Of a stretch of DNA of 32,000 bases, positions 1 through 23,218 are shown piece after piece. Under the pieces are notes generated by a model. It saw only the letters and a program-made list of their open reading frames with translations, ran no database searches and was not told where the DNA came from. Every line of letters starts with the position of its first letter. Position 1 is the first letter of the stretch. The position numbers and the translations under genes are program-made. The stretch is from Buchnera aphidicola (Thelaxes suberi). GTDB taxonomy: Bacteria; Pseudomonadota; Gammaproteobacteria; Enterobacterales; Enterobacteriaceae. The stretch lies in contig NZ_OZ060389.1 in NCBI RefSeq assembly GCF_964059005.1, positions 1 through 32,000 of the forward strand, written 5' to 3'.

Positions 1-258
1 ATTTTCACATATAAAAAATAAAATAATTCATTTCAACCAAATAATTTATTATTCAAGATAAGATAAATTTTTTGATAGCATTATGGTTTTGTTAAAATAA
101 AACGCTGAATAAAAAACTCACTTAATATAAGAATACTACATTAGTATATTTTAACATAATTTTTATTATATATTTTTTAATGATATTTAATTAAAAAAAT
201 AAAAAATTTTTATAAAAAATAAAATAAAAAATAAATTTTATATTATAAAGGTTATAAC

Positions 259-13019: not shown

Positions 13020-14416
13020 ATTTTTTTTTAAGAAGATAAAATAATTTTTAAAATAAAAAGTCTTCTATATATCCAGTTATTTTCTTTTAACAGTAAATTT
13101 ATTTTATAAGATTATAAAAATTTTTAAATCAGATCTATGATATAGCATTAACGATTTAAAAATAACAAAATTTAAATATTTTATTTTAAAAATATCTATT
13201 TAATAAATTATAAAGTAATTAATTTTTAATTTTTCAGTAAGTAATAAAATAAGTACATTAAATAGAGTTTTTTCAAAATTGAATATATTATATATATTTC
13301 AACTTAATAAGTTTATTTATATTATAATTTAAAATTATAACAATTCTTTTGTTGCAACATAAATTAATAAAAAAAATTATATTTAATATGAAATTATTTG
13401 CATATATTTCTATAAATATAGATATACTAATTATATTATAAAATAATAATTCCATATGAAATTAAAATTTATAACTTATATATGTTAAAATTTTTATCTA
13501 TACATATTATATGTATCATAATTTAAAAAAATATATATAATTATTTATAAAAAATTTTATTTTTTTTTAAAAAAAATAATATATATTCGTAATAATAAAA
13601 AACAAAACCATGATTGTTATTAATATCGTTAAAATAAATTAATTTATACATGATGAATTAATTAATAGTAATTATTATAAATATAATTACTAATAAAATT
13701 AAGTATTTATACAAGAATTTATAATTTATTATATTTATTTTAAAATATTTTGTTTTGTGATTAATAATTAAAATTATTTTTAACTTTACATTTTATAATA
13801 CATTTTAATCATAAATTAATTATTTTGAATATATTAATAATAAAATTATTAATATATTAATACATTTTTATAAATTGTAATTTTATGAATAAAATGTTTA
13901 GTTTCGTATTTTATAAATAAAATAATCTAAATTCTTGTTTTGATTAAAAGTTAAAAAATAAAGTAATAAAAAAATTATTTTTTTCTCAACAAAGAATAAA
14001 ATAATAATTTAATCAGCACATACAAAATTTAATAATATATTAAATATATACTAAAAAAGCTTTTTATTTATAATAAAAAATGAATTATTTCATTAATGAA
14101 TTATATATAATTAATATTTTATTAAAATTTATAAAAATTTTTTGTAATAAATAAATAAGTATTTAATAAAATTATTCTATAAATATAAAAATATAGTTTA
14201 TATAATTTTGAGATAATATATTATAAATTCTAATTCAAAATTATATTAATAAAAAATAAATAATTAAAAAATTTAATTTCAAACAAATTTATTTAATAAT
14301 AATTAATTTTATTTTTTTTATATAAATTAAAAAATATTTCTGTATAACCAAATATAAAATTAATTTAAAATACTATTATTAAATGTAAAACAATATTCAT
14401 AACGGATAACTTTAGT
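13020..14416 (-). pseudogene. dnaA: Fully eroded dnaA locus (synteny-defined), with a possible fossil of the DnaA C-terminus at 13028-13111
   Basis: 1,397 bp with no ORF of 60 aa or more on either strand, and about 130 G+C by hand count (roughly 9-10% GC). It occupies the position of dnaA, upstream of dnaN and divergent from rpmH. A 27-codon minus-strand frame ends at TAA 13028-13030, 8 nt before the dnaN ATG. It reads ...LKENNWIYRRLFILKIILSS*, compared with the E. coli DnaA end ...[21 protein letters not shown]. Confidence 0.5.
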
Positions 14417-18762: not shown

Positions 18763-20433
<1,671 letters not shown>

Positions 20434-20538
20434 TTAATTTATGCATTTTTATTAAAAAATACATAAATTACATTCAAAAAGCACATTTTATAACAGTTAA
20501 TATTTAAAATCTTTTAATTAATTTAAATAAATATTTTT

Positions 20539-20608: not shown

Positions 20609-21181
20609 ATGATTATATTACATAGTAATAACATAAAAAAAGGAAGCAAAATTATTTTTTTAAATGAACCTTATTCTATAGAACATAGTGAGTTTGTTAA
20701 ACCAGGAAAAGGACAAGCGTTTATTAGGGTAAAATTACGTAATTTAATATCAGGAAAGTTATTAGATAAAACATTTAAAGCTACAGATTATTTTAATGCT
20801 GCAAATGTGCATACAACTTCAGTTATTTACATATATAAAGATCAAAACAATTATTTTTTTATGGACAAACAATCATTTGAACAATTTTCAATAAATCAAC
20901 ATACATTAAGAAATAATTATAAATGGATTGTAGAACAAAACGAATATTCAGCTAACATATGGAATAATAAAATTATCTCCATTTCTATAAACAATTTTGT
21001 TATATTAAAAGTAATTAATATAACAAACGCTATTAAAGGAAATTCAATTAATCCGGGAAACAAAATGGCTACATTATCCACAGGAGCTGTAGTAAAAATA
21101 CCTTTATTCATTAAAATAGGAGATTTGATCAAAATAGATACTCGATCTGAAGAATATGTCAGTCGAATAAAAATAAACTAA
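20609..21181 (+). CDS. efp: Translation elongation factor P
   Basis: 190 aa. SEFVKPGKGQAFIRVKLRNL contains the conserved modified Lys of the KPGKGQAF loop. TLSTGAVVKIPLFI and DTRSEEYVSRIK are conserved. Confidence 0.95.
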   Translation: MIILHSNNIKKGSKIIFLNEPYSIEHSEFVKPGKGQAFIRVKLRNLISGKLLDKTFKATDYFNAANVHTTSVIYIYKDQNNYFFMDKQSFEQFSINQHTLRNNYKWIVEQNEYSANIWNNKIISISINNFVILKVINITNAIKGNSINPGNKMATLSTGAVVKIPLFIKIGDLIKIDTRSEEYVSRIKIN

Positions 21182-21211: not shown

Positions 21212-21940
21212 CTATTTTACATATTGACGATAACTATCCCATTCAAATGTCAACCATAAACTATTTCCTAATCTCATACGATCAATAACACGTTCTCCTA
21301 ACAATAACCGCATTCCCTCATGATCCAAATTCGATAGCATTCCAGTAGAACGTTTAGAAGAAGATCTTCTATCAACTATTTGATTAATAATAACTTTTTC
21401 ATAACGTGATTCTGTTTGCATTCCTATTTCATCGATCATTAATAAGTCTACTGTACTTAAGTTATGTAATAAATTTTCTTCGGTAATAATACTCGAATCG
21501 CTAAAAGTTCCTTTCATATTAGACATTAAATCTGCAACAGTTACAATTAATACAGTTTTACCATTAAGTATTAAATGATTTCCGATTGCTGAAGCAAGAT
21601 GATTTTTACCAGTTCCAGGTTTTCCTGAAAAAATAAAACTTGCTATATTACCATTAAATTCTTCTGCATAACGTCGAGCTGCAGATACGACTTTTTTATG
21701 ACCTTTGTGTTCTATTTTATAGTTATCAAATGAACAATCAATATACAATTCGCGAATTCCTGATCTTCCTAAAATCTTCTGTATTTTTATAGATTGATTG
21801 TGTTTTAATATAGCTTTAGAAGCTAATCTTCCCTGTTCCTGATTCCAGGATATCAAATCATGTTCAGTATTAAATTTTGGTTTGACATGAGTTGGTATTA
21901 ATCGCTGTAATCTTTTTAAAAAACTGCTATGATTATCCAT
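21212..21940 (-). CDS. dnaC: Helicase loader DnaC
   Basis: 242 aa, against 245 in E. coli. IASFIFSGKPGTGKNHLA (Walker A), YEKVIINQIVDRRSSSKR and MRLGNSLW are almost identical to E. coli DnaC. Confidence 0.95.
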   Translation of the reverse strand: MDNHSSFLKRLQRLIPTHVKPKFNTEHDLISWNQEQGRLASKAILKHNQSIKIQKILGRSGIRELYIDCSFDNYKIEHKGHKKVVSAARRYAEEFNGNIASFIFSGKPGTGKNHLASAIGNHLILNGKTVLIVTVADLMSNMKGTFSDSSIITEENLLHNLSTVDLLMIDEIGMQTESRYEKVIINQIVDRRSSSKRSTGMLSNLDHEGMRLLLGERVIDRMRLGNSLWLTFEWDSYRQYVK

Positions 21941-21943
21941 ATT

Positions 21944-22504
21944 TTATTTATCTCTAAAACCTATTGGTATTTTTTTATCTGGAACTGGTAATGCATTAAT
22001 ATCTCTTTTACAACAATGATGTTTATTTTTTATAAACCTGATACGTTCTAAACTACGCGCAAATTTTTGTTGCCATTGCATATGATGAAATAATCTTCCT
22101 TCTGCTTTCCAATATGAAATAAATGATAATAATTCTTCATTTTTTGGTGCGCTTGTTAATTTTATACCCCATATAAGTGCTTGATGTAAAAAATTATTAT
22201 CTGGCTTCCAGTCATCATAGATAAGAAATTTACCTTGAGGTGTATAATTACAACTATTACTTTTTCCTTTAATATCTATTTTTGTTAAATACTTATTCAA
22301 TAAAATTGATCGATCATAATCAATATTTTTTTTATGTACATAAAATAATTTTTTCATAATTCTAGGAGTAACAACATACATTACTGGAACGTTTTCATTA
22401 AAAACAGCAAGAATTTCGTTTTTTGCACCATATAATGATTTTATAGGATTCTTAGAAAAAACTTTTAATGTTGTAAAAAAAGAGGTAAACGTACTATATG
22501 TCAT
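21944..22504 (-). CDS. dnaT: Primosomal protein DnaT
   Basis: 186 aa, against 179 in E. coli. The motifs DDWKPDNNF, SFISYWKAEGRLFHHMQWQQKFARSL and IPIGFR match E. coli DnaT ([32 protein letters not shown]). Its stop is 3 nt from the dnaC ATG, the dnaTC operon layout seen in E. coli. Confidence 0.9.
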   Translation of the reverse strand: MTYSTFTSFFTTLKVFSKNPIKSLYGAKNEILAVFNENVPVMYVVTPRIMKKLFYVHKKNIDYDRSILLNKYLTKIDIKGKSNSCNYTPQGKFLIYDDWKPDNNFLHQALIWGIKLTSAPKNEELLSFISYWKAEGRLFHHMQWQQKFARSLERIRFIKNKHHCCKRDINALPVPDKKIPIGFRDK

Positions 22505-22639
22505 ATATTAATAACCTTTAACTAATTAACAATTAATCAAATAATTAAATATTATTAAAAATATTATTTTTATCATAAAAATTAATTTATTAATAATAAT
22601 TAATATATAAATTATAAATTTATACAAAATATAAATTCT

Positions 22640-23218
22640 TTATGACAAACACTTATACAAAATATATTTTTTTTTCTTATTCATTTTAATTTTATATAAT
22701 TTCCAAGATTTTGGAATTTTTAAATCTTCTACACTCCCATAAAATTCTACATAAATTAAAGAATCTTTTTTCGTAAAATTATTTTTATAAATCAAAGTAA
22801 TTATTTTGTTAATAATATTTAAATAAAAAGGAGGATCAATAAATATTATATCAAAACTATTATTATTAGTAGAATTTAACCATTTTAATGTATTAGTATG
22901 AACAATTTTTACATTATTAATTAATAATCTATTCATATTACTTCTAATAGATAATATATTTTTTTTTTGAATCTCTAATGCAGTAACAAATTTAGCATGA
23001 CGAGAAATTGATTCAATACTTAAAATTCCACTTCCAGAAAAACAATCTAAACAGGAAGATTCATAAATATATGAATCTAACCAATTAAATAACATTTCTC
23101 TTCTAATAGATATCGTAGGTCGCATATTAATACTTCTTTGAGTATATACATATTGAGACCTTAAATATCCACCGGTTATACGTATCTTAATGTTGTTTTT
23201 TTTTATTTTTATTTGCAT
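22640..23218 (-). CDS. rsmD: 16S rRNA (guanine966-N2)-methyltransferase RsmD (YhhF)
   Basis: 192 aa. RPTISIRREMLFNWL, the SAM motif LDCFSGSG and the catalytic DPPF match E. coli RsmD. It is divergent from ftsY, as in E. coli. Confidence 0.88.
   Translation of the reverse strand: MQIKIKKNNIKIRITGGYLRSQYVYTQRSINMRPTISIRREMLFNWLDSYIYESSCLDCFSGSGILSIESISRHAKFVTALEIQKKNILSIRSNMNRLLINNVKIVHTNTLKWLNSTNNNSFDIIFIDPPFYLNIINKIITLIYKNNFTKKDSLIYVEFYGSVEDLKIPKSWKLYKIKMNKKKKYILYKCLS

Follow-up and report, generated by a model that had tools for sequence, protein, structure and literature searches.

The gene pair dnaT–dnaC lies on the minus strand of the window, the whole stretch of 32,000 nucleotides analysed. 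The upstream gene, dnaT (21944-22504), encodes a replication-restart (preprimosome) protein of 186 aa, assigned by PF17948, NF002770 and alignment to PDB 9zbt_D. The downstream gene, dnaC (21212-21940), encodes the 242-aa AAA+ loader of the DnaB helicase, assigned by NF005931 and alignment to 6qel_G. Between the dnaT stop codon and the dnaC start codon is a spacer of 3 nt (21941-21943, minus strand), which reads AAT on the coding strand and gives the junction TAA-AAT-ATG; the spacer in E. coli K-12 is 2 nt. The open reading frames and the junction confirm an initial sequence-only reading of the locus, which described both genes as full length and 3 nt apart. At their own base composition, the probability that such open frames arise by chance is ~2e-8 for 186 codons and ~1e-10 for 242 codons.

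A 135-nt spacer (22505-22639, minus strand) separates dnaT from a 192-aa ORF (22640-23218, minus strand), which the ORF list and synteny place at the position of rsmD/yhhF, a putative assignment. This ORF is conserved in position across the nine Buchnera-type genomes compared and may be co-transcribed with dnaT–dnaC. Beyond the other end of the operon, a convergent 190-aa ORF (20609-21181, plus strand), putatively efp on the same grounds, leaves 30 nt between its own end and that of dnaC. A promoter and terminator scan of the operon and the spacer upstream of dnaT detected no promoter signal beyond chance level (18 promoter-like sites, compared with 22.7 expected) and 0 terminator-like sites.

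DnaC scores 424.5 bits against the NCBIfam equivalog NF005931 (cut-off 357), with residues 1-242 aligned to positions 1-242 of the 246 in the model. Its alignment with E. coli DnaC (PDB 6qel_G) runs over the full length at 325 bits and ~62% identity, and here the Walker A motif GKPGTGKNHL, whose lysine corresponds to E. coli K112, and the Walker B motif DEIG (IDEIG) are preserved. The protein is among the most conserved in the clade, its tree length ranking at the 4th percentile among 402 orthologues, and dnaC was found in 6/6 of the dnaA-less Buchnera-type genomes sampled. A dnaC809-type substitution would make PriA and DnaT unnecessary. The bypass allele of this type is E176G (PMC5778457), and it is ruled out here: the position corresponding to E176 still holds E (in QTES), and K178 of the E. 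coli protein is replaced by R.

DnaT matches the DNA-binding domain model PF17948 at 54.1 bits (gathering score 25). Against NCBIfam NF002770 it reaches 175 bits (E 1e-51; residues 5-184 on positions 5-178 of 179), which is under the 201-bit cut-off; Buchnera-type DnaT proteins of the same GTDB genus all score 167-175 against this model. Residues 26-184 align to E. coli DnaT (PDB 9zbt_D) at 118 bits, and FHHMQWQQKFARSL aligns with a 14-residue block of the E. coli protein. Both signature blocks named in the sequence-only reading, this one and GKPGTGKNHL in DnaC, are therefore matched in the E. coli alignments. The C-terminal core that forms the ssDNA filament (QWQQKLA-SL) is conserved across divergent lineages. 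In E. coli, the acidic DnaT linker docks on PriB through residues Asp66 and Asp70 (PMC13377028). The net charge of the linker is -4 in E. coli, +7 here and +4 to +14 in every Buchnera-type DnaT examined, and AT-driven lysine enrichment may contribute to this basic character.

Loss of dnaA and probable position of the origin

The genome is a 543 kb, Buchnera-type chromosome with small contigs and has a completeness score of 98.9%. The label 'Buchnera-type' rests on gene order and plasmid matches; the pLeu-type contig matches Buchnera aphidicola plasmids only, at 72-77% identity. The claim that dnaA is gone proved correct genome-wide, although the operon alone could not show it: both profile searches and searches with sister-genome DnaA were negative. 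The DnaA models TIGR00362 and PF00308 match DnaC only. Similarly, DnaA from the two sister genomes gives no match on the three small contigs or in the empty dnaA slot between dnaN and rpmH/rnpA (13020-14416; no strand), which spans 1397 bp at 9.4% GC.

In the two closest relatives, G001 and G002, the position equivalent to 13020-14416 holds an intact dnaA, and their gene order matches that of the genome studied here (G000) gene for gene. In the phylogenetic tree, G000 groups with G002 and G001 branches off just outside this pair, each node having 100% support. As the sister and the outer branch both keep the gene, the loss of dnaA is lineage-specific. The other genes absent from G000 relative to both sisters are murJ, endA, pyrG, dsbA, ppiD, trmB and a few small ORFs without a family match, and none of those identified is replication-related. 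Takeover of the chromosome by a plasmid-type initiator (integrative suppression) was considered and rejected: the chromosome has no RepA homologue, and plasmid DNA matches it only in low-complexity, AT-rich sequence. Three IncFII-type RepA genes are carried on the small contigs.

The third-codon GC (GC3) skew, which is a historical proxy and not a measure of present origin use, has a replichore effect of 0.198 in G000, compared with 0.212 and 0.220 in the sisters. The skew of G000 is sharp and bipartite, and its profile correlates at 0.98 with that of G002. It switches at 60 kb in G000 and at 55 kb in G002, ~58 kb from mnmG and near tsaD-ribB-cca in both; in the next relative the switch lies ~80 kb out. 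Because the skew is as polarised as in the sisters and switches where that of G002 switches, it suggests that initiation in G000 is still site-specific. A search for a classical origin with DnaA boxes, proposed together with the sequence-only reading, found no clusters of boxes in G000, either at mnmG or where the skew switches. Such clusters are also absent from the dnaA-bearing sisters, so box counting does not discriminate within this clade.

Primosome genes with and without dnaA

G000 encodes priA, dnaT, dnaC, dnaB, dnaG, ssb, polA and rep. E. coli stable DNA replication (SDR) occurs as cSDR in rnhA, recG or topA mutants and as iSDR after SOS. The gene inventory bore out one part of the sequence-only reading, with priA, dnaB and dnaG present and no dnaA elsewhere in the genome; for the SDR-related genes the outcome was mixed, with rnhA intact and priB, recA and topA absent. 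RNase HI scores 204 bits against a 160-bit cut-off, and the equivalents of D10, E48, D70, H124 and D134 are preserved. No recA match was obtained in G000 at E <= 0.01, and priC was not found in this genome. recG and topA were found neither in G000 nor in the dnaA-bearing sisters. The only match to the priB model TIGR04418 is SSB, at 21 bits, and the rpsF-rpsR gap, where the order rpsF-priB-rpsR-rplI is expected, is ~82 nt; priB was not found in any of the three genomes checked, in which this gap measures 82-116 nt (G000, G001 and G002).

PriA of G000 is a full-length orthologue that scores far under the NCBIfam cut-off. The Walker A motif GVTGSGKTE, the K230 loop of E. coli-type PriA, has become NINILQKLD, and DEEH has become YQDY. 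In 6/6 Buchnera-type PriA sequences, the Walker A loop is degenerate and the DExH motif lost or altered, although three keep the latter in part (DEEC, VEEH and DSEH). All eight cysteines of the zinc-binding, Cys-rich region are aligned and kept in 6/6 sequences. Relatives with and without dnaA alike share the degenerate PriA and the basic DnaT linker. PriA–DnaT is the sole helicase-loading adaptor encoded.

A comparison of 58 small symbiont genomes, 28 without and 30 with dnaA, revealed no enrichment of dnaT, priA or dnaC in the dnaA-less group. The gene dnaT is present in 6/28 dnaA-less and 10/30 dnaA-bearing genomes, priA in 16/28 and 20/30, and dnaC in 7/28 and 17/30, respectively. Within the Buchnera-type genomes, 5/6 dnaA-less and 7/12 dnaA-bearing members have dnaT, a non-significant trend (Fisher p = 0.6) towards a PriA–DnaT start of replication. 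G001 and G002 share both the dnaT–dnaC operon and the diverged priA, and dnaT is intact in both genomes, so that one check suggested with the sequence-only reading is passed. As the dnaA-bearing sisters keep the same operon and priA, retention predates the loss of dnaA and is independent of it. Furthermore, two Buchnera-type genomes with the window's gene order dispense with parts of the machinery: G069 lacks dnaA, dnaT and priA, and G118 lacks dnaA and priA.

Tree length places dnaT in the 92nd percentile of the 402 orthologues and priA in the 99th. The dN/dS values are indicative only, as 33-40% of protein sites differ and dS is almost saturated, which inflates the ratios; they are 0.08-0.12 for dnaC, 0.43-0.65 for dnaT and 0.62-0.91 for priA, against a background of 0.32. 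In view of this saturation, relative rates of the proteins were used besides dN/dS. The G000 branch accounts for 0.31 of the tree length of DnaT (76th percentile), 0.27 of that of PriA (50th percentile) and 0.35 of that of DnaC (93rd percentile, on a branch of only 0.09). The proposed comparison of dN/dS with dnaA-containing relatives could be computed, and gave similar values in pairs with and without G000; no clear lineage-specific shift emerged.

Readings of the retained operon

The sequence-only reading argued that keeping dnaT in a genome without dnaA suggests a start of replication through PriA, DnaT and DnaC. According to this proposal, a PriA–DnaT–DnaC primosome on an R-loop (or D-loop) would start chromosome replication, and dnaT would be kept as part of the initiator. 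The required genes are encoded (priA, dnaT, dnaC, dnaB, dnaG, ssb, polA and rep), and the chromosome offers no other initiator, the DnaA models matching DnaC only and no RepA homologue being present. In E. coli, loss of recG or topA favours R-loops and DnaA-independent replication, and both genes are absent here. Five of the six dnaA-less Buchnera-type genomes keep dnaT. Furthermore, the architecture of DnaT is DnaA-like, combining a filament of the C-terminal domain on ssDNA with an oligomeric N-terminal domain (PMC13377028), and excess DnaT bypasses PriB in vitro (PMC5778457).

Most of the genomic context nevertheless argues against such a start, which is judged unlikely. Without recA, neither a D-loop-primed start nor the RecA-dependent step of E. 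coli cSDR is possible. An R-loop-primed start of the E. coli type fits badly, since RNase HI is intact, catalytic residues included, and priB is absent; priC is missing too, and E. coli cSDR needs PriB (PMC5778457). The Walker A and DExH motifs of PriA are lost, and in E. coli a PriA devoid of ATPase and helicase activity has, when PriB is missing, the phenotype of a priA null (PMC5778457). The sharp, bipartite skew differs from the dispersed pattern expected of many R-loop origins. Few genes are under weaker constraint than priA and dnaT, and no tightening is seen in G000. The claim drawn from keeping dnaT could not be upheld: the dnaA-bearing sisters have the same operon and gene set, dnaT is not enriched in dnaA-less genomes, G069 and G118 live without priA (G069 also without dnaT), and recA, priB and the PriA motor are missing. 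Because the state of PriA and DnaT is alike with and without dnaA, retention of dnaT–dnaC says nothing specific about dnaA-less initiation.

At the other extreme, dnaT and priA could be decaying, non-working relics, with dnaC alone of importance. Their fast evolution (92nd and 99th percentiles, with dN/dS above background), the score of DnaT under its NCBIfam cut-off and that of PriA far under its own, and losses of dnaT and priA in several Buchnera-type lineages are consistent with decay. Saturation of dS inflates those ratios, however, and open frames of 186 and 746 codons would arise by chance with probabilities of 2e-8 and 1.6e-31 at 23% GC. The frames are open in nine (dnaT) and six (priA) divergent lineages, and the DnaT core QWQQKLA-SL and the eight zinc cysteines of PriA are conserved, which makes the relic explanation highly improbable. 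A third possibility, drawn by analogy with plasmids, is that the clade already starts at a fixed, non-oriC site, the skew switch, by a DnaA-independent, ColE1-like R-loop, with RNase HI and Pol I feeding a PriB-free primosome of motor-less PriA, DnaT and DnaC. The origin would then have moved, and DnaA would have become dispensable, before the gene was lost. This is regarded as quite improbable; if true, it would explain the repeated loss of dnaA in Buchnera.

The operon is probably best read as an ancestral Buchnera operon for helicase loading and replication restart, which purifying selection maintains for these ordinary jobs, and not as a marker of initiation. It would have been inherited from a free-living enterobacterial ancestor, with DnaC loading DnaB whenever a replisome is assembled, and DnaT and PriA reloading DnaB at abandoned forks. 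The restart machine of the clade would be a stripped-down version that is independent of PriB and PriC, and in which the acidic linker by which DnaT docks on PriB appears to have been replaced by a basic linker. Replication would start at one fixed place, the GC3 skew switch ~58 kb from mnmG, as in G002. This start most likely requires DnaB loading by DnaC; candidate agents for opening the DNA are transcription, supercoiling and a host factor, and PriA–DnaT would be at most an optional helper.

Several observations count against this housekeeping role. DnaB must be loaded without DnaA, and PriA–DnaT is the only adaptor encoded for it. recG and topA are absent, and the frequency of dnaT in Buchnera-type genomes leans, non-significantly, towards those without dnaA (5/6 compared with 7/12). 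In addition, G000 has an intact priA, whereas in the dnaA-bearing G001 the gene is broken in two at an A15 tract.

Comparison with known replication systems

The closest known system is the E. coli dnaT–dnaC pair and its PriA–PriB–DnaT preprimosome (PDB 9zbt/9zbu, 8fak and 6qel; PMC5778457; PMC13377028). The gene pair, its order and its near-abutting spacing are alike, as are the ATPase motifs of DnaC, the C-terminal ssDNA-binding core of DnaT and the Cys-rich region of PriA. In contrast to E. coli, priB, priC, recA and recG are absent here, the PriA motor motifs are degenerate, and the DnaT linker carries +7 instead of -4. By analogy with E. coli genetics, this gene combination would equal a priA null (PMC5778457). 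Motor-less PriA is known in Deinococcus (cited in PMC5778457), where the scaffold and zinc-binding region are likewise kept and the ATPase motifs gone; here the same state occurs in an Enterobacterales symbiont and is coupled to loss of PriB and a recharged DnaT linker.

ColE1-type origins are site-specific and independent of DnaA and RecA. At such an origin, the RNA II R-loop is cut by RNase HI and extended by Pol I, and a PriA-dependent primosome is assembled on the displaced strand; in E. coli, PriB is also used. The likeness to the present genome is a gene-inventory analogy only: the required RNase HI, Pol I, PriA, DnaT, DnaC, DnaB and DnaG are all encoded. E. coli SDR is also DnaA-independent and uses PriA, DnaT, DnaC, DnaB and DnaG, and the recG-less, topA-less background of G000 resembles SDR-activating conditions. 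cSDR requires loss of RNase HI together with RecA and PriB, and iSDR requires RecA and the helicase activity of PriA (PMC5778457), whereas RNase HI is intact here, RecA and PriB are absent, PriA is motor-less and the skew indicates one fixed origin.

How dnaA-less bacteria start replication is a question that dates from the Wigglesworthia and Blochmannia genomes of 2002-2003. Like Wigglesworthia, Camponotus Blochmannia and the Buchnera of Cerataphidini aphids, the present genome is AT-rich and reduced, belongs to an obligate gamma-proteobacterial symbiont and no longer has dnaA; for such symbionts, host control and DnaA-independent (Kogoma-type) initiation have been debated (PMC3280448, PMC4389277, PMC3620526, bioRxiv 10.1101/2025.07.09.664008). 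In Blochmannia floridanus and Wigglesworthia, dnaC is reportedly missing too (PMC3620526), whereas G000 keeps dnaC, dnaT and priA. The presence of dnaT–dnaC is no valid indicator of PriA-dependent initiation, because dnaA-keeping relatives share the operon and some dnaA-less Buchnera lack dnaT and priA. Unlike in the other dnaA-less insect endosymbionts, the loss here is lineage-specific, with dnaA-bearing sisters in the same order gene for gene. These Buchnera form a natural experiment: sister genomes of identical gene order, with and without dnaA, that have a stripped-down primosome and a skew-inferred origin in common.

The dnaT–dnaC pair and the loss of dnaA

The chromosome of the Thelaxes suberi symbiont (genome G000) spans 529.5 kb, of which the window is the initial 32 kb; with three small contigs, the genome totals 542,847 bp (23% GC; completeness score 98.9%). 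Two adjacent ORFs on the minus strand, dnaC (21212–21940, 242 aa) and dnaT (21944–22504, 186 aa), meet at the junction TAA-AAT-ATG with a 3-nt spacer, whereas the identical gene pair of E. coli K-12 is separated by 2 nt. The 242-aa protein scored 424.5 bits against NF005931 (equivalog cut-off 357), aligned with E. coli DnaC over the full length (6qel_G, 325 bits) with Walker A and Walker B intact, and is DnaC by sequence comparison. The 186-aa protein scored 54 bits against Pfam PF17948 (cut-off 25), gave a full-length match to NF002770 (175 bits, E = 1e-51) under the 201-bit cut-off, and matched E. coli DnaT (9zbt_D) at 118 bits; these matches identify it as DnaT. The sequence-only reading had described both genes as intact, 3 nt apart and conserved in the E. 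coli signature blocks, and the ORF coordinates, the junction, the Walker A motif of DnaC and the motif it quoted from DnaT all bear this out. Here, the two are ordinary Buchnera genes. Nine further reduced genomes, all in the GTDB family to which G000 belongs, match the window's gene order gene for gene; genomes with this order are termed Buchnera-type.

That dnaA is gone, as also claimed, was confirmed. In the G000 genome, the DnaA models TIGR00362 and PF00308 matched DnaC alone, and DnaA proteins of the sister genomes found no similarity in the emptied, unstranded dnaA slot (13020–14416; 1397 bp, 9.4% GC) or in the small contigs. Intact dnaA occupies the equivalent position in the sisters G001 and G002. 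In a concatenated tree (5,675 columns), G000 and G002 are sisters (100%) and G001 is the next branch out (100%), so the loss is specific to the G000 lineage. It is also old relative to the rate at which third positions turn over, since the slot now stands at 9.4% GC with zero residual similarity. dnaA is likewise missing from five other sampled Buchnera-type genomes (G033, G062, G069, G076 and G118), and a published study reports its loss in Buchnera from Cerataphidini aphids (bioRxiv 10.1101/2025.07.09.664008). Other identifiable genes that both sisters carry and that found no match in G000 are murJ, endA, pyrG (CTP synthase), dsbA, ppiD and trmB, together with a few small ORFs without a family match.

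Among the small contigs, one of 8.5 kb is a pLeu-type plasmid (leuABCD, ibp, yqhA and two IncFII repA genes) that matched Buchnera aphidicola plasmids only, at 72–77% identity. Another, of 2124 bp (G000:C2, locus L085), is plasmid-like and carries a divergent IncFII-type RepA gene (91 bits) and a 333-aa gene matching PF19420, a family of eukaryotic-type dimethylarginine dimethylaminohydrolase (299 bits). A gene of this family is unusual cargo for a Buchnera plasmid.

The sequence-only reading took the kept dnaT to point to a start through PriA, DnaT and DnaC; retention, however, does not track dnaA loss. Among small genomes, dnaT was found in 6 of 28 without dnaA versus 10 of 30 with it, and priA in 16/28 versus 20/30; dnaC was rarer where dnaA is missing (7/28 versus 17/30; Fisher p = 0.018), which runs against that hypothesis. 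Buchnera-type genomes retain dnaT in five of six dnaA-less and 7 of 12 dnaA-bearing cases (p = 0.6), and dnaC in all 18. The key counter-example is G069 (428 kb; loci L088 and L089), which has the window's gene order, keeps dnaC and lacks dnaA, dnaT and priA: only ~130 nt separate its dnaC from the next gene (~19167–20472), so dnaT has been deleted, and a priA search gave no match. G118 lacks dnaA and priA and keeps dnaT. dnaC is reported to be missing from Blochmannia and Wigglesworthia (PMC3620526), and restart genes are variable among endosymbionts according to Klasson and Andersson, as cited in PMC2671203.

A stripped-down PriA and DnaT

The replication genes listed in the sequence-only reading are retained in part: priA, dnaB (568 bits), dnaG and rnhA (204 bits against a 160-bit cut-off, with conserved catalytic residues) are present in G000, and priB, recA and topA are absent. 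ssb, polA and rep are also present, no priC was found, and the sole match to recG was a truncated mfd. This mfd (G000:C1 ~265.3–267.4 kb; L003:346–2445) encodes 700 aa covering only positions 286–907 of TIGR00580, the N-terminal third being missing. The absence of priB, topA and recG is common to G000 and its dnaA-bearing sisters; in all three genomes, priB has been deleted from the rpsF–rpsR operon, leaving a gap of ~82 nt in G000 (G000:C1:493713–493796).

The priA orthologue of G000 (G000:C1:106425–108665; L002:775–3012) is full length at 746 aa and scored 180–295 bits, far under the cut-offs. Six Buchnera-type PriA proteins were aligned, all but one taken from genomes with dnaA. None has an intact Walker A loop, GVTGSGKTE having degenerated in each (NINILQKLD in G000). 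Nor does any retain an unaltered DExH box, which reads YQDY in G000 and survives in part in three sequences, as DEEC, VEEH and DSEH. The zinc-binding region retains its full set of eight cysteines. Because the Walker A loop is degenerate in all six, a motor-less PriA looks, from the alignment, ancestral to the Buchnera-type clade. The stripped-down primosome predates dnaA loss. The priA of dnaA-bearing G001 (G001:C1:100890–103122) is split at an A15 run into ORFs of 154 and 576 aa in different frames; either the run is prone to slippage or the sequence contains an error.

In E. coli, the acidic linker of DnaT docks on PriB (PMC13377028). The net charge of this linker (residues ~50–88) is −4 in E. 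coli, +7 in G000 and +4 to +14 in all nine Buchnera-type proteins, while the C-terminal filament core is conserved. AT-driven lysine enrichment may account for part of this shift, yet the recharged linker and the priB deletion together look like co-evolution towards a PriB-free primosome. Genetically, ATPase-dead PriA without PriB approximates a priA null in E. coli, and in vitro PriB can become dispensable when DnaT is in excess (PMC5778457). Buchnera appears to use a minimal PriA–DnaT–DnaC route, whether dnaA is present or not.

Origin position and rates of change

Origin position was approximated by third-codon-position strand asymmetry corrected for gene strand (GC3 skew). The best-fit origin and terminus fell at 60 and 270 kb in dnaA-less G000 (replichore effect 0.198), at 55 and 265 kb in dnaA-bearing G002 (0.220) and at 80 and 290 kb in dnaA-bearing G001 (0.212), and the profiles of G000 and G002 correlated at 0.98. 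A displaced origin fitted much better than one at mnmG (residual sum of squares 536 versus 795 in G000). Gene by gene, the corrected skew of G000 flips from negative to positive not at mnmG but at ~56–60 kb of the chromosome (L098:6956–10091), between tsaD (56956–57981) and cca (58841–60091), with ribB in between. Over the first 40 kb, where gene order is identical, the replication component is negative in G000, G001, G002, G033 and G076, and positive in dnaA-bearing G108 and G142 and dnaA-less G069, G118 and G062. These profiles suggest that the origin moved without rearrangement and that its position varies within the clade.

No cluster of DnaA boxes was found at mnmG or at the skew switch in any genome examined, dnaA-bearing ones included. 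The spacer upstream of mnmG in G000 (window 1–258 plus 529422–529515) held no DnaA box with up to two mismatches; of the dnaA-bearing sisters, G002 had none there and G001 one site with two mismatches. Given an old dnaA loss and these fits, the skew proxy implies that initiation in dnaA-less Buchnera would still be site-specific, that G000 would start at the same place as its dnaA-bearing sister, and that the origin would have left mnmG before dnaA was lost.

Rates were compared across 402 orthologue triples of G000, G001 and G002, in which the median G000 share of the tree was 0.27. Tree length placed DnaB at the 3rd percentile, DnaC at the 4th, DnaT at the 92nd and PriA at the 99th. The G000 share was 0.35 for DnaC (93rd percentile, on a branch of only 0.09), 0.31 for DnaT (76th) and 0.27 for PriA (50th). 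NG86 dN/dS, with dS near saturation because the proteins differ at 33–40% of sites, was 0.08–0.12 for dnaC, 0.43–0.65 for dnaT and 0.62–0.91 for priA, against a background median of 0.32. For these genes, neither rates nor dN/dS showed specific tightening or clear relaxation on the dnaA-less branch.

Routes to initiation

The loss of dnaA in insect symbionts, some Buchnera included, is already published, and Kogoma-type DnaA-independent replication or host control in such symbionts has been discussed since 2002–2003. Four by-products of this analysis may be new: a PriA without a motor across the clade; PriB loss alongside a recharged DnaT linker; a skew origin that is both displaced and variable; and a Buchnera-type genome without dnaA, dnaT and priA. 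A search of a limited library found no paper on any of them.

The dnaT–dnaC pair is probably plain inherited housekeeping, its retention uninformative about initiation. It is rather unlikely that PriA, DnaT and DnaC form the actual initiation route in the G000 lineage, although recG and topA are missing and PriA–DnaT is the sole encoded adaptor for DnaB loading without DnaA. Priming by R-loops or D-loops, as the sequence-only reading proposed, fares poorly: the lack of RecA excludes the D-loop route, and the R-loop route of E. coli sits badly with an intact RNase HI, the absence of PriB and RecA, and a PriA without a motor. That dnaT is a non-functional relic is highly improbable; the chance probability of an open frame is 2e-8 for its 186 codons and 1.6e-31 for the 746 codons of priA, and such frames in themselves argue for selection.

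The simplest common denominator would be DnaC-mediated loading of DnaB at a site that something other than DnaA opens, because every dnaA-less Buchnera-type genome carries dnaC and dnaB but not all carry priA and dnaT. The site-specific skew pattern argues against dispersed initiation of the kind seen in constitutive stable DNA replication (SDR) of E. coli, although skew does not pinpoint the mechanism. A ColE1-like origin requires RNase HI, Pol I, PriA, DnaT and DnaC, and does not require RecA; for that reason, and by analogy, a site-specific R-loop origin of this type would match the gene inventory better than SDR.
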